Shown here one piece after another: positions 1,526 through 36,363 of a stretch of DNA of 64,000 nucleotides (position 1 is its first letter; every line of letters starts with the position of its first letter). The translations under genes and the position numbers were made by a program. Source of the stretch: a bacterium (GTDB lineage Bacteria > UBA8248 > JACPRG01 > G963555815); assembly GCA_965218795.1 (NCBI GenBank), contig OZ244653.1, positions 480,001 through 544,000 on the forward strand, in the 5' to 3' direction. The notes under the pieces were generated by a model that made no database searches, was not told the DNA's origin, and saw nothing but the letters and a program-made list of their open reading frames with translations.

Positions 1526-2190
1526 TTACCCGTCCCGACCCAGCGCGGCGTCGCGCACGGCCTGTTCGAGGGCGCGGAACGGCTCCAGGTCCTCGGCCGA
1601 GCGCCGGGCGAGGAAGCCGGTGCGGTAGCGGAAGCGGCCGAAGTCGAGCGGCAGGGCCCGGAGCGGCGTTCCGGGCAGCCGGTCGAGCAGTTCGAGCGGC
1701 AGCCAGGCGAGCCACGGGCCGTCGGCCAGCAGCGTGAGGCCAGCCGAGCCCGCGCGGACCACGGCGCGCACCGGCCGGCCGGTCAGCTCGCGGAGTTCGT
1801 CGAGGACGGCGGCCAGGGACGGACGGTCGGCACCAGCGTCGGCTGCGGTCGGCCCGTCGAAGTCGATCCAGGGCCAGCCGGCGAGGTCGCGGGGCTCCGG
1901 CCCGGCAGTATGGAGCGGATGGCCGCGGGCGGCGACGATGCCGGCGGTCACGTCGAGGAAGGGTTCGCGTCGGAGGTGCGGCGGCAGGGCCTCGCCGGTG
2001 TCGAGGCCGCCGCAATGCAGGTCGCACGCGCCGTCGGCGAGCCGCCGCACGCCGTCGCGCCAGGAGGCGGTGCGGAGCCCGAGCTCGATCTCGGGGAAGG
2101 CGGCGTGGAACGCCTGGACGGCGGGCGCGACCACGGCCTGCATCCAGAGCGGCGCCGCGGCCACCGCCTCCTCGCCGTCCTCGATGTCGC
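1526..2190 (-). pseudogene. LysR-type regulator substrate-binding domain, HTH end deleted
   Basis: ...AVQAFHAAFPEIELGL...LADGACDLHCG...IVAARGHPL...DLAGWPWI...; the 5' end is replaced by a relaxase fragment. Confidence 0.75.
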
Positions 2191-3575
2191 GCACCGTCCC
2201 GGCCGCGACCTCACCTTCTCCGCCCCCAAGTCGGTCTCCATCGCCGCGCTGGTGGGCGGCGACAGGCGCATCGTCGAGGCGCACGACCGCGCGGTGGCGG
2301 CCACGCTCGCCTGGGTCGAGAAGAACGCCGCCGAGACCCGGATGAAGGATCCGGACACGGGGAAGATTGCGCGGGTCGCCGAGACGGCAGGGAAAACGGC
2401 CCTGCCGGAACGGGAAGCGGCGGCTGAAGTGGCACCCGGAGGTGGCGGGAATCCGGGTTCGACGGCGCCGGCGCGAGCGGACCTCGGCGAGCGGCTGGCA
2501 GGTCCAGGCGCACCTCAACAAGGGACCGCTCACGGCCGGACAGAAGGACGCGGTGAAGTTGATCCTGTCGGCGAAGGACGCGAAGCAGCTCGACGCGGTG
2601 GATGCCGGCAAGCCCTTCGCCCAGCTCCAGGCCGCCGGCATGCAGACCGCCACGATGGACGAGATCATGCGCCAGCGCGATCCGGAGCTGAAACAGGCGG
2701 TCGAGGCGAGCCTCAAGGGCGACATAGAAAAGGCGTTCGAGAAGCTCGGGGGCAACGTCGCGGAAGTCAAACCCGACAACATCGCGGGCGCGGTCGCCGC
2801 CCGCTGGCTCCGGCTTGACGAGGAAGCGCGCGCGAACACCGGCGTGATGGCGCCCTCCCACGAGCTCCGCCAGGCGATCAACGGCCATATCCGTGAGCGG
2901 CTGGCTCGCGAGGGCCGCATCCACGGGCCTGCCATGGCGTCGGAAAGGCTGGTCTCCCGTGGCTACACCAACGCGGAGAAGGCCCTCGCCGGCAACTACG
3001 CCGTGGGCGACGTGGTGGCCTTCCACCGGCCCTACAAGCGGATCGGCGTCGAAAAGGGTGACGAGCGGCGTGTCATGGGGGTCGACCACAAGGCCCGTGC
3101 GGTGATGCTCGACGACGGCAAGGGCGGCCGGGTCGCCTGGAAACCCGAGGAGATCGGCGGGCGAAGGGGCGGCAGCGAGGTCTACCGGGCCGAGGAGATC
3201 GAGCTCCGCGCCGGCGACCGCATCCGCTGGACCTGCAACGATGCCGGTCTCGGGCTGGTCAACAGCCGCACCGCCGAGGTTCTCAGGGTCGCGAACGGAA
3301 GGGTGACGTTCCGCCTGGAGGACGGGAAGATGCTGGAGTTCGGCGCGGGCGACCCGCAGCTCCGCCATCTCGACCATGCCTGGGCGTCGACCGTGCACGC
3401 CTTCCAGGGCCGCACGGTGGAAAACGTGATCGCCGCCATGGAAGCCCGGCACCCCCATCTCACCACCCAGAAGAGCTTCTATGTCGAGATCAGCCGCGCG
3501 CGCGACCGCGCCGAGCTGGTCACTGACGACGCGGCCGAACTCCGCGCCCAGCTCCAGGCCGTCACCGGCGAGGGC
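2191..3575 (+). pseudogene. traI: Internally deleted second copy of MobF relaxase/helicase
   Basis: HRPGRDLTFSAPKSVS..., QAHLNKGPLTAGQKDAVKLILS, KQLDAVDAGKPF...HAWASTVHAFQG...SRARDRAELVTDD closely match the intact gene at 37683-40601, with large blocks missing. Confidence 0.9.
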
Positions 3576-3854
3576 CTCGGGAAGGACCGCGCGGGCGCGG
3601 CAAAGGGGGAATGGACCTTGGATTGTGACGTCGCCGCCATGCCGGCCGATGTCCGAAGAGGGGCTGAGCGAAGGACGCGAAGAGGAGCTCGAAAAGCTCG
3701 TCGGCGAGGCCCGCACCTTCCAGGAATCGCTCGTCCGGAACGCCTCCGACTGAGCGCAACCCCGCCCCATAGGGGCGCATTCGAGCCGGGCGGGCGAAAC
3801 TCGTATGAGTTTCGCGCGAGTTTCAGGCGAAACACGCCGAACACAATCCAACTC

Positions 3855-4223
3855 GCCGCACTTGCGCTCCAGGAAGATCTGGTAAAGGGCCGCCTGCACC
3901 ATCGGGACCGCGGACGGCAGCTCTTCCAGGTTGATGAGCCACAAGCCGGGATCGTCCGATGGCGGCAGGAAGACCGGCGGCGCCCAGCGCGTGCGGTCGG
4001 CGCTGTCGCGCCACGGGATGCCGCGCAGGTCCACGGGGTCGAGCAGGAGCGCGCGGACGTCGACATACTGGCGGTTGGCGGCGGCCGCGACCTGCCGGGC
4101 GATCATCGACTTGGCCGCCCCGGGTGGCCCCCAGACCATGGTCGGCTGGCGGGCCTCGACCAGGAGGGCGAGCTCGCTCGGGCGTAGCGTGTAGTCGGCG
4201 GAGATGGTCTCGGGAAGGGTCAT
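3855..4223 (-). pseudogene. Truncated MoxR/AAA_5-like ATPase (N-terminal part)
   Basis: MVWGPPGAAKS Walker A-like, VDVRALLLDPVDLRGIP, INLEELPSA Walker B-like; similarity stops after ERKCGE. Confidence 0.75.
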
Positions 4224-6627: not shown

Positions 6628-7746
6628 TTGGTGACGGATATCGTCCGGCGGTGCACCACACTGGTGGGTGATCCCACGAAGGAGACCGGGATTTTGGGCG
6701 GACACGACCAAATTCAAGGCACCGTGCCGAGTGGTGAGCGTTACTCCAGGATCGCGCCCTTGGACGTCGACACTGAAACGCGCCTAGCGCTTCAGGCGCG
6801 ACAGTTTTTTTCGCCCATGTTCCAGGTTGAGGCGCGCAAGCCCTCACCAGGGCAACCACTGACACCGGCGTCGGGCAAGGACTTCCTGGATTACCTGGGG
6901 GAGTGCAAATCTGTACCCGATGAACCCGACAGGTACCTTCATCAAATACGTGGGTTGCTGGACCGCATGGTCGAAAACGACCTCCTCGTCGAAATGGGCG
7001 TAGGTGGGGGTGGTAATTTTGTCATGCTCCCGAAGAGCTACTACGCGTTCAGCGAGCTATCGAAGCTAAGAGAGCGCGGAGTCCTCTGGTTGGCGAAGAC
7101 TCTCGGGGGGCGGTTCGTTCATCGTCACGTTTCGCCCGCCATCGTGCATGTCGTCGGTGAGAACGATGAAGGCGAGGGGAGCGGCATTGTCTTCGATGCA
7201 CATCACGTCCTCACGTGTCGCCATGTGGTTTCTCGCATGAAACTCGCCTCCGGGCAGGTGTTCCAAGGAAGGACGGTGACCGTCGAAGAAGTCTTCCAGC
7301 ATGGAACCGAGGACGTGGCGGTCATCCGGATCAAGAAGTCGCTGATGACCGTTCCCGGTCTCGGATTTGTCGCTCCGATGGTGTCGCAGAAGGTCTACAG
7401 GTTCGGATACTCGAGGGTTCCGTGCTCTATCCCATCGAGCACGGGGGCTTCTCCCTTGGTCATGCAAAGCGGAGAAGTGACCAATGATTCAGTCTTCGTG
7501 TTCGGTGGTATGGAGCTGTTCCTCTATTCCGCGATATCCAGGCCCGGCGACAGTGGCGGCGCGGTTGTTTCAGACGACGGCTATGTCGTGGGAATGACGA
7601 CGGAACTGTCGGATTCCAGGGTGCACACGATGGAGGGTGAGGACGTCTTTTCGCCGCACTACGCCGGAATTCCCTCGCATGTTCTCGCGGGGGCGGTCGA
7701 TGATTTGAACTTGGGCGTCCAAATTCCCCTTGAGACCTACGTGTAG
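6628..7746 (+). CDS. Trypsin-like (S1) serine protease with uncharacterised N-terminal region
   Basis: GSGIVF...LTCRHVV (His), EDVAVI (Asp), PGDSGGAV (Ser). Confidence 0.85.
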   Translation: MVTDIVRRCTTLVGDPTKETGILGGHDQIQGTVPSGERYSRIAPLDVDTETRLALQARQFFSPMFQVEARKPSPGQPLTPASGKDFLDYLGECKSVPDEPDRYLHQIRGLLDRMVENDLLVEMGVGGGGNFVMLPKSYYAFSELSKLRERGVLWLAKTLGGRFVHRHVSPAIVHVVGENDEGEGSGIVFDAHHVLTCRHVVSRMKLASGQVFQGRTVTVEEVFQHGTEDVAVIRIKKSLMTVPGLGFVAPMVSQKVYRFGYSRVPCSIPSSTGASPLVMQSGEVTNDSVFVFGGMELFLYSAISRPGDSGGAVVSDDGYVVGMTTELSDSRVHTMEGEDVFSPHYAGIPSHVLAGAVDDLNLGVQIPLETYV

Positions 7747-7930: not shown

Positions 7931-10900
7931 CTAGGTTGCCGTTGTCCCCATGACCTTGCCTGGTGGTACCGACACGTCCACGACGCAGATCGAGATCAGG
8001 TTCCGGTCTCGGTCGCAGAGCGACTGCTGGAGCCTCTGTTCCATCTCGCCGGGCGTCGTCGGACGCCAATTCCCGGATTTCGTTGGTCGGCACGCTTCCG
8101 TGTCCCCAAACCAGAACACCAGGTAAATTCCGATGCCCCCTGCGTCGGGATCGGGCGTGTAGTATGCCGTCAGTTGTTCGCTGATCGCCGTCCAAACATC
8201 GTCGTGGCAGCTTCGCTTGATTTCCACAGGGAGATTGAAGCCGGCGAAGCTCACGCGGATGTCCGCCCTCCGGTCATTGGCATAAACGCCTTCGGGTTGC
8301 GCATCGATTCCGCGCGGCGCAAGCCGGTCCTGTAGGTCGGACAGCATCGCATCCCGGCACCCATCCTCAGGTTTTGGGGCGGTGGGGCGGTTGTGCCGAT
8401 CCACGTTCCAGTACTGGCGCCAGTCCGACGTGGGCCCTTGACGGATCTTCTGCGACAGTGACGTCAGCTCGTCGAGGACTAGTGCCGCCAAGTCCCCGAC
8501 GTTGGCCGGGCTCCGGTTGTTGAGCGTCTCCACTACCTGCTGAATGGTGCAGTGACGGAACTCGTGCTCTCTGCGTCGCTGGACGTGACACAACCGCGTT
8601 TCTGCGATGCTCCCTAGCCACGGTTGTGCGTTGGGGCTGTCGGCAAGTGCCTGAAGTACGTCCGTTGCCGCAGCGCCTGTCTCGGTCGCGAGGCTCGAAA
8701 CTGCATGGGACACCGCCCTATGGGCATACTCGGGCATTTCACGCGACATCACAGTTCCTGCGAATTCGACCAGCGCCCTTACGTCGGAAGGTTCCAAGTC
8801 GCGAGCAATATCCTCTCGCGGGACACGGGCGGATGCCAGGAACATCCCGACGCTCGCAGAACACGCCTCGTCGTCAGGCAACGAACGGAAGTCATCCCGC
8901 CAATGCTGCGGGTCTGCCAAAAAGCCTGCGAATATCCAGCAAATCCTCTCATTCAGCCTGGGGCGGCCCCGATCGAGCCGGTCGCGCGCGAGACGGCTGA
9001 CCTCGGCGCGGTCGCCGTGGACGAGCGCGGAGTGAAGAGTCCAACACAACGCCCTCAATTCCGAGTCCGACTTGACCGCCGGGAATCGCTGGAGCAGCGG
9101 GACCGCTGCCGCTCTGGCCACCTTCTCGTGGTCATCCGCATACCTTAGTTCATGGAGTTCTATGGGCATCTGGACGCCGGTTTCGAGCTTCGTCACCGCG
9201 ACGTCGGACAGGATGCGGGCTACAAGCCCCGGTTGGCTCTCCAGCAGCGTTTGGAACCACTGCGGTCGGTAAATGGTGCTTGAATTGGCGCTGTCGGGGG
9301 CGACCGCTCGGGCGGGCAACGTGTAGAGAATGGTCACTGCCAGACGGGTAGAGTCTTGGGTCAGATCGCCCATCAGGAGTCGGCCCGACTGCTCCAGGCT
9401 GTGGAGTCCCGCAACGAACGGCAGCACGAGCAGATTGATCTTCTGCGTGTCGAGCGACCGGACCACCTCCTCGCAATCGGGCAGATCCATGCGTCTAGTC
9501 GTCGCCTGCATTTGCGCGAGGAGTACGTCGGCTACTTCCGGTGAACCGCCGGCGAACGCGCGAAGACGGTCCCGCGGCGTTTCGCCGGCAAATCTGTCGT
9601 CGATGCCGAGGTACGCCGTGGCAGCCAAATGCAGCTGTTGTCTGTCAACCTGTCCGGGCATCGCCATCGATGGCGGAGTGTGTGTGGGCGCTGGTTGGCT
9701 GGAGCGGTGCTCGCGCTCGTCCGGCGAGTCTGATGGCCTCTGTCCTTCGGGGCGTGATGCCGGCCCAGCTCGAGGTTCCAACATCTGGGTGAAACGGTGG
9801 AGAAGCGACTTGTCGGACGACAACGCGGCGCGCGCTTCCTCTACGGTGAGCCCGTACGCTCCCTGCCCACCGTTCAGGCAGTCGACAAGCTCGCTGAGGT
9901 AGAACGACTCGGCATCAGGTTGCCCGCTGGCCGCGAGCGCCTGATCCACACACCAGGGACCGTAGTCGAACGGACGTGCCCCGAACAGGTGACGGTCAAC
10001 CAGCCCGGTGCACTCTTCGCCACGGGCCATACACTCGTTGACGCCGTGGGCAATCAACGCCTTTAGTGTCTCCCGATTCCGCCGCAAGCCGAACTGCAGG
10101 CTGGCCATGTCCCGGTCTATCGTTTCGAATCCGCTGTCCGAGAACAGGCGGAGCCAGTTGTACAGGCGGTGAGCGTCCATGTCCCCACGGGAATCTCTTA
10201 GGAACCGGTCCAAAGTCTCGACAGGCAGCCGCGCCATTCGCGTAAACGTGCCAACCTCGCCGTGCATGAAGGACTTGAAACGATCTCTGTTCGCGGCGAC
10301 GGCGTCCAAGAGCTCAGCGAGCTGCTCGGGTGTCGACTGCCTGATGACATGTTCTGTCCAGAACCTCGAGTACTCGCCGGTGTGCTCCGTGAGGCGCGGT
10401 GCACGCAGGTACGGCAACACGTCCTGCATGGTCAGTATCCGAGGAAAGAGGTGCTTCAACAGGATTCCCAGGAGCTCGTCCCCTGGGTCTTCGACCGAGC
10501 CGCCGTCGATGTCGCGCATCAATGTGTTCAACGCGGCAGAGCTGAAGGAGCCTCGCTCCGCATAGCCGGTCAAGACATCGAGGGCTCCGGATCTGACGCT
10601 CGGATACCAAGTGCTGTCGCGCACGATCGCCTCCAACACGTCTGCCAAGGCTGGAAGCGGGTCGCCGTCCGCCAGCATTTGCACGAGCAGGAGGATGTAG
10701 CACTGGTGTACATGATCGCGTTGGTCGCCCGAGAAAATCTCTCTCAGGGTTTCCTCAAGTTCCGGCGATACGATCGCGCCGATGCCTGCCACTCTTCCGA
10801 CTGAGCGCGAAGCGTATGAGTTGTGGTCCCACTCCCGGCGGAGGTTCAGAACGATCTCGCGCTTTTCCTCCGGGGAGTAGGTGTCCCGATCGGCGGCGTG

Positions 10901-12025
10901 TATCAGGCCGCTTGGATCCAAGCGGCTGAGGCATCTTCTGGATCCTTTGTTGTGGACAGCCAGCCAAGACGCGAAGTTCTTCAGTCCCGGCAAGAGCTCG
11001 CCGTCGAACCCTGTAATCAACGAGAGGACTCGGGTTAGCGGTAGTCCATCGTCCAAGCGACTGGAGATATGGCGCGCTGCAAGGTACTCCGCGATCTGCC
11101 GATGGACCGGCGCCAGTTGTCCTTCGGAAACGCCAGAGAAGAGCCGCGTGCCGAGAACCCGTCTGCTCCAGGCATCGGTGTCGGCGGCGACTTCTGTGAC
11201 GGATGGGTATTCTTTGTCAGGCTCCGCAAGGTCCGGCAGCGTGTAGCCGGCGTTGCCAGCCAGAATCTGGACCGCGCAGAGTCGCCCCGCCGCCTCGAGT
11301 AGAGCGTTGGCGTCCGCCGTTGAAGGGTCCGCTGCAAGGTGCTCGTTGTTCGGCTCGCGCACGAGGATCCTGCAAGCCTGCTCAAAAGTGTCCCGTCGGG
11401 ACTCGGGCCACTTGCCTTGAGCGACCGCCCTGGCCAGCAGGTCCAAGTTCTGCGGGTTCGTCAGCAGGTTGTCGATTCCGCGCTGGCGCGCCGCATCGAC
11501 GAAGCGTTCCGGGTCCGTGACGCCGTGGTTCTTCACGAGAATCTGCGTGATGTCGCTTCTCGATAAGGGATCCAGTCGGATCACGGCTACGGCGTGATCG
11601 GGGGAGACCTCCCTCAGTCCTTCCTTGTCGTTGGCGGCCAGCCAGTCGCGCCATCGGCAGGAGAGTCGAAACGGCGGGCGTCCGAGGCTGTCCAGCTTCC
11701 TGATGACGTCGTCAAGCGGAGTCCGCGCGTCCCCCGGTCCCGCCCGAGACTCGTCGAGACCGTCAAGGAACAACGTCCTGCCCCGCCACTCAGGCTTGTC
11801 GAGCCTGAGGAAGTTGCGAACCGTTTCGTAGATGCCGCCCTGCCTCGCCGCCTCGGTTTCGAACGCTACCGTCTTGCCCGCCCCTGGCTCGGCGATGAGC
11901 ACATAGGCTGCCGTGTCGGAGTAGACGCCGAGAGGCGTGTGGCGGCCGTCGCTGACAGGTCCTGCCGCTTCATTGACCACCGTGCATGTTCGCGGGGCGT
12001 AGTACTTTGTTGCGGCAAGAGTCAT
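7931..12025 (-). CDS. STAND/NACHT-like NTPase (1364 aa) with C-terminal PD-(D/E)XK-like nuclease domain
   Basis: Start ATG 12025 overlaps the upstream stop (ATGA). Walker A AEPGAGKT, Walker B LFLDGLDE, LSCR, NPQNL, PVHRQIAEYLAA; C-terminal RRADIRV...VEIKR...QL..YY..DP....GIYLVFWFG. Confidence 0.85.
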   Translation of the reverse strand: MTLAATKYYAPRTCTVVNEAAGPVSDGRHTPLGVYSDTAAYVLIAEPGAGKTVAFETEAARQGGIYETVRNFLRLDKPEWRGRTLFLDGLDESRAGPGDARTPLDDVIRKLDSLGRPPFRLSCRWRDWLAANDKEGLREVSPDHAVAVIRLDPLSRSDITQILVKNHGVTDPERFVDAARQRGIDNLLTNPQNLDLLARAVAQGKWPESRRDTFEQACRILVREPNNEHLAADPSTADANALLEAAGRLCAVQILAGNAGYTLPDLAEPDKEYPSVTEVAADTDAWSRRVLGTRLFSGVSEGQLAPVHRQIAEYLAARHISSRLDDGLPLTRVLSLITGFDGELLPGLKNFASWLAVHNKGSRRCLSRLDPSGLIHAADRDTYSPEEKREIVLNLRREWDHNSYASRSVGRVAGIGAIVSPELEETLREIFSGDQRDHVHQCYILLLVQMLADGDPLPALADVLEAIVRDSTWYPSVRSGALDVLTGYAERGSFSSAALNTLMRDIDGGSVEDPGDELLGILLKHLFPRILTMQDVLPYLRAPRLTEHTGEYSRFWTEHVIRQSTPEQLAELLDAVAANRDRFKSFMHGEVGTFTRMARLPVETLDRFLRDSRGDMDAHRLYNWLRLFSDSGFETIDRDMASLQFGLRRNRETLKALIAHGVNECMARGEECTGLVDRHLFGARPFDYGPWCVDQALAASGQPDAESFYLSELVDCLNGGQGAYGLTVEEARAALSSDKSLLHRFTQMLEPRAGPASRPEGQRPSDSPDEREHRSSQPAPTHTPPSMAMPGQVDRQQLHLAATAYLGIDDRFAGETPRDRLRAFAGGSPEVADVLLAQMQATTRRMDLPDCEEVVRSLDTQKINLLVLPFVAGLHSLEQSGRLLMGDLTQDSTRLAVTILYTLPARAVAPDSANSSTIYRPQWFQTLLESQPGLVARILSDVAVTKLETGVQMPIELHELRYADDHEKVARAAAVPLLQRFPAVKSDSELRALCWTLHSALVHGDRAEVSRLARDRLDRGRPRLNERICWIFAGFLADPQHWRDDFRSLPDDEACSASVGMFLASARVPREDIARDLEPSDVRALVEFAGTVMSREMPEYAHRAVSHAVSSLATETGAAATDVLQALADSPNAQPWLGSIAETRLCHVQRRREHEFRHCTIQQVVETLNNRSPANVGDLAALVLDELTSLSQKIRQGPTSDWRQYWNVDRHNRPTAPKPEDGCRDAMLSDLQDRLAPRGIDAQPEGVYANDRRADIRVSFAGFNLPVEIKRSCHDDVWTAISEQLTAYYTPDPDAGGIGIYLVFWFGDTEACRPTKSGNWRPTTPGEMEQRLQQSLCDRDRNLISICVVDVSVPPGKVMGTTAT

Positions 12026-12921
12026 TTCCGGATCAGCACATTGAGATCGCGCACCGGGACATACGCCATGCCGGTTTCTGCTGCGCGCCTGACTTTCTGG
12101 GCGATGACATCGGCAAGGTGAAGCCGGCCGGAAAGGACCTCGTGCAGATCGAGCCCGTCCATGCATATGACGCGCTTGCCGCGTCCGAAAGCGTGCAGTC
12201 CGTCTGCGGTGAAGCCGCTTTGGCTGATGATTAGACCGCGCGACCAGCTCGCCTTTTCCTCGACTTTGCCATTGAAGGCGTGAAGGGTTGCCACATCGAC
12301 CTGAGCGTTCCTCCATCTGGCTTCGAGCAGATAGGTCTGATCGCCGAGCACGAAACTTCCGTCGATCTGCTCGCCCCTGAGACGAAAGGAGGCGCGCGCG
12401 GACATTCCGTAGGCGTCGAATACGTCCTTCAGGAAGCTCTCGAAGGCATAGCCGCGGGCCTGCGGGTCCATGGTGGAGACTTCGAGCAGACGGGCGGCGA
12501 GGGCGGAGGCTACGGCCGGATCGACGAGCTGGTCTTGCTGCGCTGCGGCGGGCGTCTCCGGCTCTGGCGGCGTGCCCCCGAGGCGTTGGATGATCCGGAA
12601 GTAGGCGGTTCGCACCGTGTCTTCGAGTTCTGGATAGTCCGCGGTGACGCTGCTCGCCTCGCGGTATTCCCAAAGCGTCTCGAGGGTTTGGAGCGCTGTG
12701 TGGCGGTCTGCCCGTCGCAAGTAGCAGCGCAGGCGGTTCGCCTTGCTGTTGCCTTGAGCCGCCCACCGGTCATCGTAGATGTCGACGCCGAACTCTTCGT
12801 GAAAGAAGTTCGCGAAAGTCCGGTTGGAGAAGTTGAGCACAACGCCGCTCTCCATGCCGAACACCCTGTCGATGATCGGAATGTCCATGGAGCGGATCCT
12901 GGCATCCGATGTGGCGGCCAC
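12022..12921 (-). CDS. Mrr-like restriction endonuclease with AbiJ-type N-terminal domain
   Basis: N-term VLNFSNRTFANFF...DIYD...SKANRLR; C-term RGYAFESFL...GEQIDGSF...LLEARW...GLIISQSGFT. Confidence 0.75.
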   Translation of the reverse strand: MAATSDARIRSMDIPIIDRVFGMESGVVLNFSNRTFANFFHEEFGVDIYDDRWAAQGNSKANRLRCYLRRADRHTALQTLETLWEYREASSVTADYPELEDTVRTAYFRIIQRLGGTPPEPETPAAAQQDQLVDPAVASALAARLLEVSTMDPQARGYAFESFLKDVFDAYGMSARASFRLRGEQIDGSFVLGDQTYLLEARWRNAQVDVATLHAFNGKVEEKASWSRGLIISQSGFTADGLHAFGRGKRVICMDGLDLHEVLSGRLHLADVIAQKVRRAAETGMAYVPVRDLNVLIRK

Positions 12922-12924
12922 GGA

Positions 12925-13782
12925 TCACCTCAATCCCAGCGCCGAGAGCCAGGCGTCGACCTGCCCGAACGCGTCCTGCTGCCATTGATCGGCGGTGCGC
13001 TCTTCGAGCATGTCGGGCCTGTCGACGAACTGTCGCACGCTGGTCGGACCGAAATCGTCCGGGTGGCGGAATTTGTCCGCAATGTGGAGATAGCCGGTCC
13101 TTGCCGACTCGAACTTGAGGAGCGGCTCGGTTTCGGCGACGAGCGCCTCGATCCCGCCCGGGAAGTTGCGGATGCTGTAGTAGATGTCGTAGGCGTCCTT
13201 TTGCTTGAGCCGATCCGCGATCGTGTAGCCCTTCATGGCCAGCAGCGCGGGGATAGAGGCAACGGCGATCCGTACGCGGTTGCTCCCGCCGCCGGGCATG
13301 TCGCCGTCGACCGCCACGAACTTGTGGGGCTTCAGGGCCAGGTCCGCGCCGTCGGCGCGCTGAACCGCAAAGTCGGCGACCAGCGGAGGCACGTTCTTCG
13401 CGATCGTCGCGTCCCGAGGCATCAGAAAATCGACGACCACATCGATGTCGGGACCGTCGTCGCGGGCGGGGACGGTACGCACGAGTTGAAAGCGGCGCCG
13501 GTCCTCCCCCTGGCGGTAACCCTGCCTCAGGAGAGCGTCGACGAGCCGCGCGTAATCGCCGTCACCCAGGGCCTCCGCATCCAGGGTGAGATCCACGTCC
13601 AGGGTTCCGATATGCGGCATGTCGGACCCGGTCAGCAGCAGCCAGGGAACGGCGCCGCCGATCACGGCGAATCTGTCCCGGTAGCTGCCCAGGATCTGGC
13701 CGATCTCGACCAACACTGACTTGACCGCGCCCGTAGCGCGGTCGTCGTAGTCGGAGGCGCGCCGCGGGTCTATTTCAGCCAT
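12925..13782 (-). CDS. Pol-beta-like nucleotidyltransferase (AbiEii-type toxin)
   Basis: VIGGAVP...GTLDVDL...; LLAMKGY...KQKDAYDIYY; start overlaps the upstream gene end. Confidence 0.8.
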   Translation of the reverse strand: MAEIDPRRASDYDDRATGAVKSVLVEIGQILGSYRDRFAVIGGAVPWLLLTGSDMPHIGTLDVDLTLDAEALGDGDYARLVDALLRQGYRQGEDRRRFQLVRTVPARDDGPDIDVVVDFLMPRDATIAKNVPPLVADFAVQRADGADLALKPHKFVAVDGDMPGGGSNRVRIAVASIPALLAMKGYTIADRLKQKDAYDIYYSIRNFPGGIEALVAETEPLLKFESARTGYLHIADKFRHPDDFGPTSVRQFVDRPDMLEERTADQWQQDAFGQVDAWLSALGLR

Positions 13783-14876
13783 GGGAAGAACTCGCCCGCC
13801 AAGTGTTCCGCCGCCTCCCGGTCGCGGTCGCTGCCGGTCCAGAGATCGAGATAGGTCACGATGGGACTGGTGCAGAACACGTTCGGCGCGGGTTCGCTCG
13901 CGTCGTGAAACAGGCTCTCGTCCGTCGGGACGAGCAGCACCACGTTCGCGCCCCTTGCGGCGTGCGTGAGCTTCAACGCGTCCTTCAGCGCATCGGCGCC
14001 CGGCTCGTCGGCGTATAGCGTATGGGTGGCGCTCCGGCCGAAGGGCGCAAGCCACTGGGCGGCCGAGTGCAGCGCGTAGAGGACGCGCGGGCACTCGGGG
14101 TGCGGGTTGAGCGTGCCCCGCAGCCGCTCGTCGAGCTGGGTTCCATGGAGATGGGTATATCCGGTGATGGATTCGCCGGTCGGGCGGCGATAGCTCTCGC
14201 GCCAGGTTTGCAGCAGGACGTCCGGTTGGACGAGGACGACGCCGTCATCCCCGAGCTCGATCCATTCGCGTGCCAGCAGAGCCTTGCGGACATTGCTCAC
14301 ATGGCCATAGCTGGCGCGGGCCTGCGCCGCCAGATCGGCGACGCGCCATGCACGTCCCGGTTCGCGCAGCAGTACGCGCAGGATCGCCGCTGCCTTCGGA
14401 GAGAAGATCGAGCGCAGCGAACGGGTCTCCGAGACGGGCCTCTCTGCGACGGCACGCTCGATGTAGACGGTATCGAATGCGAGCCTCGCGTTTCCGACCA
14501 GATCGAGATAGGCGATATCATGGTCCAAGCAGATGGCGCGCGAGTCCGGAGACAGGTAAGGACTGACGATCATTGGAATGAAGCGCCTGCCGCCATTTGC
14601 CTCGCCGGATCGGCGCAATCGAGCCACGCAGCTCTCGAGCTGATAGACCCCGGAGCGGACGAATCGGGGGGCGCCGTTCGACCTCACCTCTACGACGAGT
14701 GCATAGTTGCCGCCGCGGTGGGCAAATGCGACTAGTCCGTCCATACCATAGTCGTGGCCGATTTTTCGTTCATACTCGACGGTCTCGACCTGCACGCTCG
14801 GCACGTTGCGGAGCAGGTCGCGAACCGCATCGATCGCGCGGACCTCCACTTCTTTCACTAATTCTACACTTTTCAT
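13770..14876 (-). CDS. AbiEi-family type IV antitoxin / transcriptional regulator
   Basis: wHTH WRVADLAAQARASYGHVSNVRKAL; C-term GANVVLL...SPIVTYLDL...RDREAAEHL. Confidence 0.8.
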   Translation of the reverse strand: MKSVELVKEVEVRAIDAVRDLLRNVPSVQVETVEYERKIGHDYGMDGLVAFAHRGGNYALVVEVRSNGAPRFVRSGVYQLESCVARLRRSGEANGGRRFIPMIVSPYLSPDSRAICLDHDIAYLDLVGNARLAFDTVYIERAVAERPVSETRSLRSIFSPKAAAILRVLLREPGRAWRVADLAAQARASYGHVSNVRKALLAREWIELGDDGVVLVQPDVLLQTWRESYRRPTGESITGYTHLHGTQLDERLRGTLNPHPECPRVLYALHSAAQWLAPFGRSATHTLYADEPGADALKDALKLTHAARGANVVLLVPTDESLFHDASEPAPNVFCTSPIVTYLDLWTGSDRDREAAEHLAGEFFPWLK

Positions 14877-14913
14877 AACACGATGAATATAGGCATCAGA
14901 GTGAAAAATACAA
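14853..14913 (-). promoter_or_regulatory. Putative sigma70 promoter and operator of the abiE-STAND operon
   Basis: Minus strand TTGTAT-16 bp-TATATT ~10 nt before ATG 14876; inverted pair TTTCACT (14853-14859) / AGTGAAA (14900-14906). Confidence 0.45.
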
Positions 14914-17265: not shown

Positions 17266-17526
17266 ATGCGAAAACCAAAAGTGCACCAGCGCACTGTTTT
17301 GCCCATAATGGGAACTATCGGGCTGCTCGTGTACGTAACAGCGCCTTGTTGGTTACCAAACTCTATTGTTGAACGCTTAGATTTTGTCGCGCTTGGCTTT
17401 GCAGCTCTAATTGCATTTCCGTGGCTCGTTGTTTGCTTTGAAGAGTTGGTATCAGCCTGGAGTCACCGCCATAACAGACTATCGGTGAAGGATATGGAGA
17501 AAGCCCGAAGGGATCAGACCTTATGA
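17266..17526 (+). CDS. Small two-TM membrane protein
   Basis: Two hydrophobic stretches; stop overlaps the next start (ATGA 17523-17526). Confidence 0.5.
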   Translation: MRKPKVHQRTVLPIMGTIGLLVYVTAPCWLPNSIVERLDFVALGFAALIAFPWLVVCFEELVSAWSHRHNRLSVKDMEKARRDQTL

Positions 17527-19343
17527 GCCAGAGCGACAAGGTGCATTTGAACGATAAGCCTGCGCCAAGTGGCGAGGAAGCGAAGCGGGACATGGAGGTG
17601 TCGGACGTCGCCGACGACCTGGGTGTCGCGATCGAACTGCTCGAACCCGGCAAGCCCCTCGTCCTGAACGACGGATTCCTCGTAACCGACAGCGGAAACT
17701 TGATCGTGAGTCAGTATGTCGACATTGGTGTGGACAAGCTGCGCCGACGCCCCTCGACTGTTTTGAAATTCATCGGGGCCAAGTACGGGCTGGAGCATGC
17801 CCTGGAAATTCAGGTGTCCGCCCCGAATCGGTACCGCGATTACGGGGAGACGTTCATCCAAGACGACCAGGAAGGACACGCCTTACGCGAAACCAAAACC
17901 GAAAGCCCACCGCGGTCCTATGAAGAACAAAATCGGGAGCAGGAAAGAGCGTTGTCTCTGCTAGGACAGGAGGGAATGACGATCACAAACACGGATACTC
18001 CGCACGTCGACCGTGCCGCCGAAAGCATGACATTCGGCAAGAGTTCTTGGATCTATTGCACGGCTATAGAGACAACTCCCGAAGAACGGAATGCAAAGCA
18101 CGAGAAATTGTCCCACAAGTATGACCACGAGAGCGTAATTCGGCAGCCAGGAAGGTTCGCCTTTGCACTTGGAGAAATGTTTGCCAACCAACGGGGTCCT
18201 CGAGGACAACGAGGCGACTCTAATCATCCAGGAGGCATTAAGTCATTTCACAACGCTCAACTCGTGATGCACGGCCCCGTTTGGTACACAGACGACGTGC
18301 TTGGGTTCCTTGAGTCACGACGATCCGAGCCTTTGTATAACATGTACCCGCTTTTCTTGAAGCACAGTGAGTATCGAGATCAGCAGGAATACAGATTTGT
18401 ACTTCATTGCGAAACGCCTGTTGAGTCGGAGACACTACGCCTGAACATCACAGGGGCGATGCGCGATGCCCTGGCTCCGCCTCTCGTGGGGGGCCACGTG
18501 ACCTTCCAACGCCGTGAGGACTCCGATGCCGACTCGTCTTCGGGGAAGGTTTCGGGTCCGACACCTACGTTCCAGACCATGACGCAAAGTCGCAATTGGT
18601 CAAATAGGCGCCGTCGGGCATTGAGTATCGAGGGCGAGGTCGTCCAGGAGGAGATCATTACTTCCGAGCAGACCATCGTGTTGAAGACGGAGCTTCCTGC
18701 CGACGGCCTGGAGCTTGGTGAGAGCGGTCTGGATGCTCCAACTCCGAAGGAAGGAGAAATTACCGACTTGAAAACCCGAGAACGTAGGGTTGCAGGAGAG
18801 GTAACCGACAAGGAGACAAGCTGGCGCACAAGGATTTTCACCATCGCGGACCCTTCCGACGCCGAAAGACTGTTCACGATGGAAGAGCAGGATAACGCGG
18901 CAGAGATGCTCAAGGCAGTCAGGCGGCCTTTTGAAAACTTCTCGACATTACCGAAGCAGGCGTCCGAGGCACTAAAGGCACTGGCCTATCAGACAGCATT
19001 TGTCGAACCAGATCTCAAGGTGCAGACAATGAGTGCATGCTGGAATGCCATTTGGGCAATATGCAATCTCTATGAGTGCTATGGCGATATTGTCGGGCCA
19101 GTAAGCATCGAGGAGGACGAGTTTGTTGCCATTACGCTGAAGCAGTCGGAGGATACCGGCGCGGAAGGCAAGATACTCGTGGGACCAAGAGGGACGTTCG
19201 CTTACCTGCTGGTACGCGGAGACGAGAAACGTCCCGGAAATGGGGGCACAAGGGATCGGCTCGTTTTTTTCCCTGACGAAGAGACGCGTGCTGCATTCGC
19301 GGAGTTCGGTTGGACGACTCTGGGGGAGGATGATTCAGAGTAA
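17523..19343 (+). CDS. Hypothetical 606-aa protein, N-terminal half resembling DUF2971-like fold
   Basis: Long ORF in lower-GC DNA; WIYCT...GPVWY...FLKHSEYRDQQEYRF. Confidence 0.65.
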   Translation: MSQSDKVHLNDKPAPSGEEAKRDMEVSDVADDLGVAIELLEPGKPLVLNDGFLVTDSGNLIVSQYVDIGVDKLRRRPSTVLKFIGAKYGLEHALEIQVSAPNRYRDYGETFIQDDQEGHALRETKTESPPRSYEEQNREQERALSLLGQEGMTITNTDTPHVDRAAESMTFGKSSWIYCTAIETTPEERNAKHEKLSHKYDHESVIRQPGRFAFALGEMFANQRGPRGQRGDSNHPGGIKSFHNAQLVMHGPVWYTDDVLGFLESRRSEPLYNMYPLFLKHSEYRDQQEYRFVLHCETPVESETLRLNITGAMRDALAPPLVGGHVTFQRREDSDADSSSGKVSGPTPTFQTMTQSRNWSNRRRRALSIEGEVVQEEIITSEQTIVLKTELPADGLELGESGLDAPTPKEGEITDLKTRERRVAGEVTDKETSWRTRIFTIADPSDAERLFTMEEQDNAAEMLKAVRRPFENFSTLPKQASEALKALAYQTAFVEPDLKVQTMSACWNAIWAICNLYECYGDIVGPVSIEEDEFVAITLKQSEDTGAEGKILVGPRGTFAYLLVRGDEKRPGNGGTRDRLVFFPDEETRAAFAEFGWTTLGEDDSE

Positions 19344-19922: not shown

Positions 19923-20897
19923 GTGGACAATGTAGAATGGAGTTGGAACGAGAAGGCTCATCCAATGACCGTGAATGCAATGTTGAATTGTGTCACGGAA
20001 CTCGCGACAGCTGCGCAACGATTCCCAATGGCAACGAAGCAATCTGACGAGAGCACCGCTCTACTTCTCCTGCAAACAGCGGTTAGGCAGATGTCGGTCC
20101 CTATACGAAAGCTCTGCTTGGACGGAAAGGGTGATCTTCTTCAGAGAACAATTGGAAACCCGCATTTCTTACCGATGGGCGGAGAAAAAGGGAATTTTAG
20201 CAAGGCAACAATGAAATGGAGGACCCAACGCCACGAGTGGGTTTTGGGTTACGAGGGGGGCAGAAAAGAAGAAGTGATTGTTCCGGAAACCGAGCACGAA
20301 ATAGAGATTGGGAGATTGTACGGGATTGAGTTTCAAGAAGATGGATGGTGCCAAATAAGGAGTCCGTTCGATCAAACAGGAAGCGGGGTCGATATGGACA
20401 CGTGGCTAGAGACGAAAATTTTGCAGGTGAATTCGATTGGCTATACAGTAAGGGATGCACTGAAGTTGGTGGCGGACTTTGAGGGAGCACATACTAACGA
20501 CCAATTGCCTGCATTTGCAGCGGTTAGGGTCAAACCGGATGACTTTGATAAAGGAGCGAGAAAGCGCTACAGGATGGCAAACTGCGTCTATTTCGGGTGC
20601 TTGTCCTATATTCAACTGATGGTAATTTATGCAGGTCTGTACGTTATTCGGAAGATGCAAAAGTTGATTCAAGAACGTCCTCTTTGCAAGAACGGAGTCA
20701 ACGTGGCTGCTGTCGCCGAGATAATTGCCGCGGTTGAGTCGGATTTGTCAGCGCGCAGCCGAATAGTGAATGGTTGTCACGAAATGATTGTTGTTGGGAA
20801 GTCTAACGTGTCAGGTGCGGAGCGCAAGAAAACCATCTATCGGATATGGTCCGGTTGTGAAGAGTGGGACAAACCCGTTGCAACGTCGAAGCCCTGA
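19923..20897 (+). CDS. Hypothetical protein (low GC)
   Basis: 324-aa ORF with natural composition; no family recognised; start uncertain. Confidence 0.6.
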   Translation: MDNVEWSWNEKAHPMTVNAMLNCVTELATAAQRFPMATKQSDESTALLLLQTAVRQMSVPIRKLCLDGKGDLLQRTIGNPHFLPMGGEKGNFSKATMKWRTQRHEWVLGYEGGRKEEVIVPETEHEIEIGRLYGIEFQEDGWCQIRSPFDQTGSGVDMDTWLETKILQVNSIGYTVRDALKLVADFEGAHTNDQLPAFAAVRVKPDDFDKGARKRYRMANCVYFGCLSYIQLMVIYAGLYVIRKMQKLIQERPLCKNGVNVAAVAEIIAAVESDLSARSRIVNGCHEMIVVGKSNVSGAERKKTIYRIWSGCEEWDKPVATSKP

Positions 20898-33429: not shown

Positions 33430-34317
33430 ATGAGATTCGACAGTCCACTCAGGTATCCGGGAGGGAAAGCATCCCTTGCGGCATTTCTCACTCGGACAAT
33501 TGAACTGAATAACCTATCGGGTTGTTCGTATTTCGAACCCTTTGCCGGTGGCGCGGGCGCCGCGCTACGCCTCCTTCGCGAAGGTGTCGTCTCGGAGATC
33601 CGGCTGAACGATTTGGACCCTCGCATCACCGCCTTCTGGAAGGCTGTGCTGGATGAGCCGGAGCGGTTCGTCGACGCCATCCTGTCTGTTCCGGTGAGCA
33701 TTTCGGAATGGAAGAAACAACGGCACATCTGTCAGCGTGCTGATGCCAGCAAGCCCTTTGAACTTGGCTTCGCTGCTTTCTACTTGAACCGCTGTAATCG
33801 GTCCGGCGTCCTCCTCGGGGCAGGTCCCATTGGGGGTCATGCGCAAACAACGAAGTGGGGGATTAACGCTCGCTTCAACAGAGCAAACCTCGCGGAGCGC
33901 ATCCTCACGGTCTCGCGTAGACGTGAACAAATCCACATCACCAACATGGACGCCCTTGCGTTCCTCGTTACCCATCTCCCGCAGGGACGTGAACGGAAAC
34001 GCGTTTTTGGCTATCTGGACCCACCCTACTACTCAAACGGTAGCCGGCTCTATATGAATTTCTACACAGACCGAGACCACAGAGGCCTGGCCCGCTACAT
34101 ACAGCGGCAGCGGACCCTCAAGTGGGTGATGTCCTACGACGATACACATTTCATCAGAGGTCTGTACGCAGACTGTGTCATGTCCCATCTCTCGCTCCAG
34201 TACAGTCTCCAGCGAAAGCAACAGGCACAGGAACTTCTGATCGCGCCGGCCCATGTACGGCTTCCCGCCTTTGTTGCGCCAATTGACACACACCAGTGCA
34301 AAGCGGCGTCGGCTTAG
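33430..34317 (+). CDS. Dam-like (D12 class) N6-adenine DNA methyltransferase
   Basis: SPLRYPGGK, YFEPFAGGAG, LNDLD, YLNRCNRSG, YLDPPYY, WVMSYD. Confidence 0.9.
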   Translation: MRFDSPLRYPGGKASLAAFLTRTIELNNLSGCSYFEPFAGGAGAALRLLREGVVSEIRLNDLDPRITAFWKAVLDEPERFVDAILSVPVSISEWKKQRHICQRADASKPFELGFAAFYLNRCNRSGVLLGAGPIGGHAQTTKWGINARFNRANLAERILTVSRRREQIHITNMDALAFLVTHLPQGRERKRVFGYLDPPYYSNGSRLYMNFYTDRDHRGLARYIQRQRTLKWVMSYDDTHFIRGLYADCVMSHLSLQYSLQRKQQAQELLIAPAHVRLPAFVAPIDTHQCKAASA

Positions 34318-34330
34318 GAAGGAGGATTCA

Positions 34331-35437
34331 ATGAATACCGAAGAGATCACACTGATGAACGTCTCTAATCTGGTATTCGATCTCAAGAACCCCCGGCTTC
34401 CTGAGTTTGACCTGACTGCAAACTCAACAGACGCCCAAGTGATACAGGTTCTATGGGAAGCGATGGATGTAAGAGAACTCGTAATGTCCATCGCAGCCAG
34501 TGGATTTTTTCGCCATGAACCCGTGATCGTCGCGCAGGAGAATGGAAAGAACGTCGTTATCGAAGGGAACCGCCGCCTCGCCGCAGTCAGAGTTCTTCTG
34601 GATCCAGAACTTGCCGAATCCCTGAAGGCGGATGATGTTCCTGACATCACCGAAGAAGACAAGGAAGCACTCAAAGAGCTTCCCACTGTGCTTGGTGCCC
34701 GCGAAGATGCTTGGCGCTATCTCGGCTTCAAGCACGTGAACGGGCCGGCCAAATGGAGTAGCTACGCCAAGTCTCGATACATTGCTGATGTGCACAGGAG
34801 TTTCGGAGTCGAACTTGGAGACATCGCGAAGCAGATTGGCGACACCCATAGGACCGTCCAGAGACTTTTTCGCGGCCTGATGGTCGTTGAGCAGGCGGAG
34901 CAGATGAAAGTATTCAGTCGCCACGACCGTTGGCGAAACCATTTTTCGTTTTCTCATCTCTACACCGGCCTCGACTACGACGGGATCAGCACCTTTATCG
35001 GCTTGGGACCGGAGACCGAGGAGGATCAGGAGCCGGTTCCCGTCGAGAAGAAGGAAGAACTCGGTGAGCTTTGCCTCTGGATGTACGGCAGTAAGAAGGA
35101 GAAGATGCCTCCCGTCATCGAGACACAGAACCCGCATCTCCGGCAGCTCGACGCAGTCGTGAGCAACATGGAAGCTCTCACCGCCCTTCGGAGTGGTCAC
35201 GACCTCACCTATGCCTACGAGGCGAGCCGTCCATCATCCACTGTCTTCGAGGAATCGCTGCTTGCCTCGAAACGGGATCTTCAGAAGGCGCACAGTTTGC
35301 TTTCCGTTGGCTACGATGGTTCCGAGGGACTGCTCAGAATTGCCGACACGGTGGCGGAACTCGCGGATGACCTTTACAAGGCGATGGACAGGAAGCGCAA
35401 TCCGCGGAGGAAGAGACGTACCGCGGAGGATGGTTGA
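34331..35437 (+). CDS. ParB/Srx-like N-terminal domain protein
   Basis: AGGAGG RBS; LVFDLKNPRL...LVMSIAASGF...EPVIV...VVIEGNRRLAA. Confidence 0.82.
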   Translation: MNTEEITLMNVSNLVFDLKNPRLPEFDLTANSTDAQVIQVLWEAMDVRELVMSIAASGFFRHEPVIVAQENGKNVVIEGNRRLAAVRVLLDPELAESLKADDVPDITEEDKEALKELPTVLGAREDAWRYLGFKHVNGPAKWSSYAKSRYIADVHRSFGVELGDIAKQIGDTHRTVQRLFRGLMVVEQAEQMKVFSRHDRWRNHFSFSHLYTGLDYDGISTFIGLGPETEEDQEPVPVEKKEELGELCLWMYGSKKEKMPPVIETQNPHLRQLDAVVSNMEALTALRSGHDLTYAYEASRPSSTVFEESLLASKRDLQKAHSLLSVGYDGSEGLLRIADTVAELADDLYKAMDRKRNPRRKRRTAEDG

Positions 35438-36363
35438 TGTTCAAGTGGCCGGGGACACCATCCGATCAAGCATCCAAACACGAACTTGCGGACTACGCCG
35501 AGTTGGTTTGCTGGAAGCAAGGCAGCACGTCGGTGACTGCCCTATCCGCCGACCTCGGCAGGCTTGAAGAAAACGACCACTCTGACGGTGTGCGGGAAGA
35601 GGAAGAAACAGATGAATTCGTCACAGCAGCATGCGAGGAGATCGAACAACGCGGAGAGGCGTGTAGAGGCGGCTATCCGTATGTGATCGGCAAACAGGGA
35701 TACTCACTTCGTGACAACCAAGAAACTGAAAACCACAGACACATCATTTACAAGTACCTGCTCCTGGCGACCCGGATGAACATGAAAGACAACCGGGTTC
35801 ATGCAGATATTGACGGTACGCTTCTGTTGGAGCAGCTCGCCGCCGATGTGGCGCGAGAGTATCTTGGCGCCCGTGCGGAGAGTTTTGTCTTTGGTACTGC
35901 CGCGGGGATGACTGATTTCTCAAAAAAGGTTGACGATCTTTGCGTCCGAATGAAGGAGGGTGATTCCTTCGTGAACCGTGACGAGGCCCCGCCGAACGAG
36001 AAGGATGGCAAGCTCGATGTTGTGGTGTTGAAACACTTCACGGACGGTCTGCCAGGAAAACTTATTGCTTTTGGGCAGTGCAAGACGGGAACCAACTACA
36101 GGGATACACTTACCCAGCTTCAGCCCGGTTCATTCTGCGACAAATGGTTGCACTCACCCCTCGCTCTCACCCCAGTGCGAATGTTCTTCATTTCAGAGGC
36201 TTTGTCTCGGGAAAGGCGGTTCACCATCGCACGCGACGCTGGCTTGCTGTTCGACCGGTGCCGGATTGTCGATTTCTGTGATTACATCAGCGCAGACGTA
36301 TTGAAGACAGTAAAGGTCTGGACAGCGGCGGCCGCAGCCAAGGTGATGAAATTGCCCGGTTGA
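35437..36363 (+). CDS. Hypothetical protein with restriction-endonuclease-like motif
   Basis: TGATG overlap with upstream gene; LLEQL...KDGKLDVVV...FGQCKTG resembles E...D...(Q)xK. Confidence 0.7.
   Translation: MFKWPGTPSDQASKHELADYAELVCWKQGSTSVTALSADLGRLEENDHSDGVREEEETDEFVTAACEEIEQRGEACRGGYPYVIGKQGYSLRDNQETENHRHIIYKYLLLATRMNMKDNRVHADIDGTLLLEQLAADVAREYLGARAESFVFGTAAGMTDFSKKVDDLCVRMKEGDSFVNRDEAPPNEKDGKLDVVVLKHFTDGLPGKLIAFGQCKTGTNYRDTLTQLQPGSFCDKWLHSPLALTPVRMFFISEALSRERRFTIARDAGLLFDRCRIVDFCDYISADVLKTVKVWTAAAAAKVMKLPG

Follow-up and report, generated by a model that had tools for sequence, protein, structure and literature searches.

A STAND sensor gene of the Erebus/Avs10 kind, probably captured behind an AbiE-nuclease operon

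The stretch analyzed here (the window, 64,000 nucleotides of the bacterial contig OZ244653.1, positions 480,001 to 544,000, assembly GCA_965218795.1) carries four co-oriented genes on its minus strand: g1 and g2, an AbiE-type antitoxin-toxin pair; g3, an Mrr-like nuclease; and g4, an EruA-like member of the signal transduction ATPases with numerous domains (STAND). We read the locus as a recent promoter capture, in which an orphaned EruA-like sensor gene was joined to an AbiE-nuclease operon and the parts likely defend alone, and give this reading a probability of roughly 0.68. The locus likely combines familiar types of parts, almost always apart in other genomes, in a new arrangement, and is not a new integrated system. 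An earlier note, made from the sequence alone, had proposed that the four genes act as one functional and unrecognized system. That proposal is unsupported, as g4 falls with a named family, the combination recurs at one locus in 70, and g3 is broken there.

All four open reading frames (ORFs) are intact and run from position 14876 to 7931, each gene being single-copy in the 5.17-Mb genome. Their junctions are tightly coupled: g1 and g2 overlap by 13 bp, g2 and g3 are separated by a 3-bp gap, and g3 and g4 share an ATGA overlap, exactly as the earlier note had recorded for these co-oriented ORFs. The GTG start of g3 has GAGGTG 5 nucleotides (nt) upstream. The 13-bp overlap is also found in four of four plasmid AbiE pairs without g3 or g4, and is therefore no sign of a four-gene unit.

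The seam between g3 and g4 lies at the g3 stop codon. In the orphan relatives L006 (84%) and L007 (74%), similarity to the DNA of the window is limited to position 12012 and downward, and their proteins begin with MSDSTKY and VDDSTMY, respectively; those of the window, of locus L004 and of the protein P0145 begin with MTLAATKY. Because orphan similarity starts at 12012 and the ATG is formed by the g3 stop, g4 has no upstream DNA of its own. A 1611-codon open frame (12766-7931) was considered as g4 from an earlier start and rejected, since relatives begin near 12013-12025. The g4 frame is open for 247 codons upstream through g3 (12022-12766, minus strand), where lower-GC trios have many stops; this extension is probably an effect of GC content.

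The second copy of the cassette, L004, comes from a Candidatus Binatia metagenome-assembled genome, and its flanks differ from those of the window. Its g3 (9306-10004) is a pseudogene with deletions of 2 and 199 nt, which sum to 201 nt and restore the frame, so that the damaged reading frame still ends on the start codon of the eruA-like gene. With a single case, the restoration could be chance, at odds of about 1 in 3. Between the two copies, the ratio of nonsynonymous to synonymous substitution rates (dN/dS) is 0.24 for g1, 0.19 for g2 and 0.23 for g4, and g4 has been under purifying selection since the split. The two copies are assigned to different phyla because the phylum of the window comprises 51 genomes and the class Binatia more than 300, and we infer that the cassette therefore moved as a unit at least once.

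Beyond this pair, the three parts (AbiE, g3 and g4) are distributed independently. Across 70 genome loci with g4 relatives, g1-g3 stand beside g4 only in L004, and no g4 relative occurs in 80 metagenomic g2 loci, 53 of which have at least 2 kb downstream. The search for co-occurrence that the earlier note had proposed thus came close to overturning its claim, but one second copy exists. Two of the 80 metagenomic loci (L080 and L083, both near contig ends) have g3 following AbiE. In the phylum of the window, 4 of the 50 other genomes have a g2 relative and another 4 a g4 relative, and none has both; in the class of L004 and L005, 17 of 301 genomes match some part and one holds the four-gene combination. 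Of the ten AbiE loci of that class besides L004, three are intact trios, three retain remnants of g3, three lack it and one is a truncated pair, and no g4 was found in any of them; g3 is absent or a remnant in L207-L210 and L213. The three intact trios (L204-L206) lie at one orthologous site and are followed by an unrelated gene, and all four intact trios with long flanks (L167 and L204-L206) lead into housekeeping-like genes, not g4. In an AbiEii tree of 95 sequences, built without duplicates, short rows or rows containing stops, g3 occurs in a single clade (support 0.98) and g4 solely on the twig of the window and L004. In the g4 tree, the window falls within a group of orphans, and a DUF4143 partner gene is adjacent in 0 of 23. 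No RNA run with the locus was listed among 23 sequencing runs, and in the fragmentary contigs of four of them no listed piece spanned the g3/g4 junction.

Comparison with the NCBIfam profile antiphage_EruA (NF058535), which represents the anti-phage NACHT protein EruA (bNACHT Erebus), gave g4 an end-to-end match (836.4 bits, E 6e-251, profile positions 17-1318 of 1318). When 11 of its relatives were scanned with this profile, five passed the curated cut-off of 1000 bits and six scored 776-955; because g4 scores 836 bits and its relatives straddle the cut-off, we place it in a continuum with EruA and do not file it as a member. The Hypnos profile HyoA (NF058534, cut-off 1200) gave 161.7 bits. 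The protein is composed of a Walker A motif (45-52), a Walker B motif (85-92), a long middle region, predicted to be the sensor, and a C-terminal PD-(D/E)XK nuclease (E1245, D1255, E1268, K1270). G48-A-G-K51 of Walker A and D88, D91 and E92 of Walker B are invariant in all 45 aligned relatives, as are D1255, E1268 and K1270 in all 62 C-terminal segments. The model of the C-terminal domain has a pLDDT of 83, and its top folds are BstYI (Z 8.1, root-mean-square deviation 3.6, 135 aligned), Can2 and BamHI, restriction-enzyme matches of middling Z, the best being that 8.1. Pfam returned no match for g4 and nothing meaningful for its C-terminal domain, and searching its alignment against the sequences of solved structures gave no match. 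A single-sequence structure of residues 165-1364 (pLDDT 44) was discarded.

Avs10 is the family name for Erebus, Hypnos and bNACHT64, and its members sense phage major capsid proteins, according to the accessible portions of Lee et al. (preprint 10.64898/2026.01.04.697583) and of its Nature version, PMC13581612. In the latter, as far as its available part extends (12 of 23 major capsid protein rows plus T4 gp24), EhAvs10 is triggered by five capsid proteins (Skarpretter, ZX5, HdK1, Pal001 and T4 gp24), and not by those of lambda, P22 and T5; the effector mutant given in the accessible part of its supplement is E1263A-K1265A. The g4 residues E1268-I-K1270 correspond to E1263/K1265 by position, not by alignment. 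A complex prediction of g4 430-1125 with T4 gp24 126-427 scored 0.00 and its controls did not fold, so that it is evidence neither way, and the cell's own genome yielded no PF05065 capsid gene. An anti-phage role for the STAND gene, which the earlier note had suggested, is supported by its homology to EruA. Like Erebus/Avs10 proteins, g4 has an NTPase first, then a middle region and an ExK nuclease at the C-terminus; unlike them, it lies below the cut-off, in a separate clade without the DUF4143 ATPase neighbor of the wider family, and is coupled behind an AbiE operon.

The remaining gene identities given in the earlier note, an AbiE-type pair and an Mrr-like nuclease, agree with Pfam just as the STAND NTPase and its nuclease agree with invariant columns and fold matches. 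g1 scores 20.3 bits against AbiEi_2 (PF09952), just below the cut-off of 21; its plasmid orthologues are annotated AbiEi, and it adjoins g2 in 78 of 80 metagenomic loci, the remaining two beginning within 32 nt of a contig end. g2 matches AbiEii (PF08843) at 25.9 bits (cut-off 22.5), and its motifs, read from the sequence as G42-G43, T60, D62-V-D64, K184 and K195-D-A-Y-D199, are recognizable as motifs I-IV when compared with the AbiEii description in the available part of PMC3985639; a search of solved-structure sequences gave no match. AbiE is described by Dy et al. (PMC3985639) and is reclassified as type VII in the accessible text of 10.64898/2026.01.19.700257, where antitoxin-induced phosphorylation of AbiEii at T65 is also reported. 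T60 of g2 may be the equivalent residue, the positions not being aligned. With PADLOC 2.0, which the earlier note had recommended, weak matches were obtained for g2 and g3, none for g1 or g4, and the pair is not called by its AbiE models. The pair resembles known AbiE systems in its gene order, with a predicted regulator first and behind it a pol-beta-type nucleotidyltransferase in which motifs I-IV are recognizable, and in the inverted repeats of its promoter. It differs in that g1 is of the AbiEi_2 type with 368 amino acids, in the failure of those models to call it, and in its operator sequence; moreover, known AbiE is bicistronic, whereas the operon here is extended by variable defense cargo.

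g3 has a C-terminal Mrr_cat domain (PF04471, 38.3 bits, cut-off 21) and a weak PADLOC match to mREase_IV (E 0.0025). On plasmids, g3 by itself is very frequent, with 1445 records of relatives, 340 of them near full length. With Mrr and type IV restriction enzymes it shares the C-terminal Mrr_cat domain, and plasmid relatives are annotated restriction endonuclease. It departs from them in its N-terminal half, which matches no Pfam family at E 0.1, and in its catalytic motif (E161, D187, E200-A-R202), where Arg replaces the catalytic Lys of most relatives. This Glu-Ala-Arg (window 12316-12324, minus strand) also occurs in L167, L180, L004 and P0147, which represents a 33-member cluster; the Lys form is found in L083, L204-L206 and four of four plasmid relatives. 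The four plasmid copies examined lie in four different contexts, and on plasmid L217 the g3 relative follows an AbiE-type pair of another family.

Upstream of abiEi lies a predicted operator that is conserved throughout the family. In the window, the palindrome TTCA-N8-TGAA at 14887-14872 overlies the g1 start codon. The same palindrome is present in all 68 distinct abiEi upstream regions, as opposed to 0.004 per shuffled sequence, and covers the start codon in 63 of them; a second copy near -76 occurs in 53 and TTGACN in 46. This conservation agrees with autorepression as in Streptococcus agalactiae AbiE, described in the accessible parts of PMC3985639 and the review PMC13064643. Judging from the coupled junctions and the family operator, all four genes are likely controlled from the abiE promoter, which makes the control of the whole operon by AbiEi, proposed in the earlier note, likely as well. 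In the abiEi regions (L081-L168), moreover, a -10-like hexamer precedes an in-frame start codon by about 5-7 nt, and an obvious ribosome-binding site is lacking. The DUF4143 upstream regions (L029-L073) have the same layout, and in both families this looks like leaderless transcription. In L109, L110, L127 and L162, divergent defense-like genes (PDC-S52, QatC, DpdF/PsyrT-like and DUF3584) face the abiE promoter, and the second operator near -76 might control them.

This AbiE family combines its conserved operator with many different defense genes in the slot behind it. At the 65 loci where the DNA continues for at least 900 nt behind g2, we took the longest ORF next to the g2 stop; 60 remained once five duplicates were dropped. 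A co-oriented, defense-like gene (our own label) starts within 220 nt in 24 of the 60, and 17 of the 60 ORFs lie on the opposite strand. The 24 comprise GajA-like (5), AbiJ_NTD3 (4), TrlF/Ppl-like (4) and Schlafen (3) genes, and one each of Mrr_cat, short-Argonaute partner, DUF4297, type IIG restriction-modification, PRTase, DrmD-like, HNH and AEP-TOTE genes; these cargo types are spread over different branches of the AbiEii tree. A PADLOC match was found for 14 of the 60 downstream ORFs, 12 of them co-oriented, compared with 3 of 54 control ORFs upstream of g1 at E 1e-15, all divergent (Fisher p 0.009, a value to be read with the caveats that kin are not independent and that the longest-ORF choice is crude). 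Seven further slot genes, coupled within 150 nt behind abiEii, match neither Pfam nor PADLOC at the thresholds applied, and six of them have no NCBIfam match either, L104 being outside that scan; they are candidates for unknown defense genes. WYL/BrxR-type regulators are reportedly marker genes that head variable defense cargo. Small serine recombinases do so as well, according to the accessible part of PMC13552941. As with these markers, the head of the row stays the same in the AbiE family and the co-oriented defense genes set closely behind it vary; the difference is that the leading unit is a toxin-antitoxin pair, or a DUF4143 ATPase in the wider EruA family. No account of AbiE heading variable cargo was found in the literature, including the available portions of 10.64898/2026.10.19.760177 and PMC13552941, in a search without most subscription papers.

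The wider EruA-like family has a usual partner gene of its own. Within the 64 g4-relative loci that retain the N-terminal part, an AAA_14-DUF4143 ATPase gene lies directly upstream in 38 of the 41 with less than 50% identity to g4, versus 0 of the 23 at 50% or more. A reading in which EruA-like genes stand alone is therefore wrong for the wider family. The ATPase and the EruA-like protein co-diverge (Mantel rho 0.74, 40 pairs), a value that shared inheritance alone can give, and a palindrome, TGAGTA-N4-TACTCA (up to 2 mismatches), stands just upstream of 33 of the 38 ATPase genes, as against 0.6% of shuffles. Before the sensor gene, it is absent from all 23 loci of the clade to which g4 belongs. 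Relatives above the EruA cut-off include three that follow the ATPase gene (L049, L062 and L073) and two that were not found beside one (L001 and L177). The ATPase also has plasmid relatives in unrelated hosts, and two of three matches in the class Alphaproteobacteria have no sensor within 1.5 kb; conversely, no ATPase partner was seen at three examined plasmid EruA-like genes or on viral contigs. In a midpoint-rooted tree (no outgroup), the g4 clade is nested among ATPase-linked relatives, which suggests that the partner was lost in this clade before the capture behind AbiE. Possibly, the DUF4143 ATPase and the EruA-like protein form a two-gene Erebus system, or the ATPase is an autoregulatory header. 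The pairing was not found described in a search without most subscription papers, including the original Erebus paper. Together, the AbiE slot and the DUF4143 pairing are more novel than the locus itself.

If the promoter was captured, joining the orphaned sensor gene to the g3 stop codon would have placed four genes under one AbiEi-repressed promoter. AbiEi would bind the palindrome and repress the promoter, and would neutralize AbiEii; this toxin, a presumed tRNA-directed nucleotidyltransferase, would in addition penalize cells that lose the cassette. g3 would be an independent nuclease that cuts DNA, provided that its Glu-Ala-Arg site is active. The middle region of g4 would bind a phage major capsid protein, the NTPase would oligomerize, and the C-terminal nuclease would be switched on and kill the infected cell; having lost its own upstream region, g4 would depend on ribosomes finishing g3. 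Repression by AbiEi, capsid sensing and killing by the nuclease are what the known relatives of these proteins would lead one to expect, and co-transcription is predicted.

Tight coupling at three junctions, the same order and boundaries in another phylum (L004) and the junction-type N-terminus of P0145 would all be expected of one integrated system with mutual dependence among its STAND sensor, AbiEii and Mrr-like nuclease, but such a system should not be confined to one of 70 g4 loci and none of 80 metagenomic g2 loci, nor have its g3 broken in the sole second copy. In addition, g4 has a nuclease of its own, and clusters at 90% identity hold 33 members for g3 versus one each for g1 and g2. 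We consider mutual dependence very improbable. A chance juxtaposition by deletion, without useful regulation, is also unlikely, though less remote; AbiE would then be an addiction module of the mobile region and the expression of g4 weak or constitutive. A TGA stop easily yields an ATGA overlap, and no more than two copies were seen. Relaxase fragments, insertion sequence (IS) elements and repeated integrative-element segments abound in the region, and the promoter and upstream operator have deteriorated as described below. Chance fits poorly, however, with purifying selection on g4 despite the loss of its upstream DNA, with the slot of this AbiE family so often holding co-oriented defense genes, and, to the extent that one case at about 1 in 3 allows, with deletions in the g3 of L004 that restore the frame onto the g4 start.

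Several observations weigh against promoter capture as we propose it. Both the window and L004 have one operator copy, the upstream second copy being lost, and a weak -35; that of the window matches the consensus at 3 of 6 positions, and the promoter is degenerate. A plain consensus scan found 0 sigma-70 sites against 1.0 expected and a terminator scan 2 against 5.0, both at or below chance, so that the single promoter with an inverted repeat proposed in the earlier note agrees with the family-wide motif and not with the consensus. P0145, known from protein sequence alone, is a third protein with the junction-type N-terminus, and together with a whole-cassette move between phyla it fits selection as a unit as well as hitch-hiking. 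The sub-cut-off score makes g4 EruA-like, and its capsid trigger is carried over by homology only. A defense role of g1-g2 is not assured, because S. agalactiae AbiE protected against none of 32 coliphages (available part of 10.64898/2026.01.19.700257). A broader idea, that Erebus/Avs10 sensors normally sit under interchangeable autoregulated header genes, usually the DUF4143 ATPase of a two-gene system and here AbiE, as a general infection-responsive module marking defense genes, is one that we put forward tentatively and think rather doubtful.

Table 1. Positions of the features discussed; plain numbers refer to the window, and those after a locus label to that locus.
Feature	Position	Strand	Basis or remark
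g1, AbiEi-type antitoxin, predicted autorepressor	13770..14876	-	368 amino acids, ATG start; PF09952 score below cut-off, orthologue annotation, adjacency to g2
g2, AbiEii/DUF1814-type nucleotidyltransferase toxin	12925..13782	-	285 amino acids; PF08843, motifs
g3, Mrr_cat-type restriction endonuclease	12022..12921	-	299 amino acids, GTG start; PF04471
g4, EruA-like (Erebus/Avs10) STAND NTPase	7931..12025	-	1364 amino acids; NF058535, invariant columns, model
Proposed capture junction, g3 stop codon supplies g4 ATG (ATGA)	12012..12025	-	DNA similarity, N-termini of relatives
Predicted abiE promoter/operator	14872..14913	-	-35-like TTGTAT 14913-14908, -10-like TATATT 14891-14886, spacer 16
Cassette extent common to window and L004	7869..14931	-	88-91% DNA identity
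Trypsin-like protease gene	6628-7746	+	intact, convergent with g4
DUF4143 ATPase genes	L029-L073, e.g. L049:8651-9952, L035:8709-9986		abut EruA-like gene start
Unannotated slot genes	L087:1039-2370, L095:3348-5018, L104:10840-11259, L110:10867-11478		
Unannotated slot genes	L113:10950-11990, L126:3997-6507, L141:10911-12566		

The region around the cassette is mobile. The earlier note overstated the decay of the neighbors: the nearest are intact-looking (a trypsin-like protein of 372, a Fic protein of 302 and a DUF6880 protein of 533 amino acids), whereas decayed TrwC and helicase fragments lie further off (1910-4187), and IS elements are present. The trypsin-like gene was considered as a fifth member of the cassette and rejected, as it stands beside a g4 relative in one of 70 loci (L005) and is frameshifted there. 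Segments within window 22163-52227 recur at many genomic sites with 80-99% identity and, with their TrwC, TrwB, Toprim, SSB and RecD2 genes, represent a multi-copy integrative element family. Two further low-GC parts of the window were recorded on the plus strand: a three-gene row at 33430-36363, made up of a D12-class adenine methyltransferase gene and, behind it, a coupled pair of ORFs (394 and 309 amino acids) without Pfam match, and ORFs of 606 and 324 amino acids at 17523-19343 and 19923-20897, with no PADLOC and no meaningful Pfam match.

The locus, a mosaic of familiar types of parts, matters little as a system. Its value is that it likely shows the assembly of a defense operon in the act, with a seam visible to the base, and that in L004 the middle gene decays while the coupling persists. 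The seven unannotated slot genes are ready candidates for defense screens. The two conserved operators, that of the abiE family and that of the DUF4143-eruA pair, make it directly testable how cells hold toxic sensors resembling nucleotide-binding leucine-rich repeat (NLR) proteins at safe levels.

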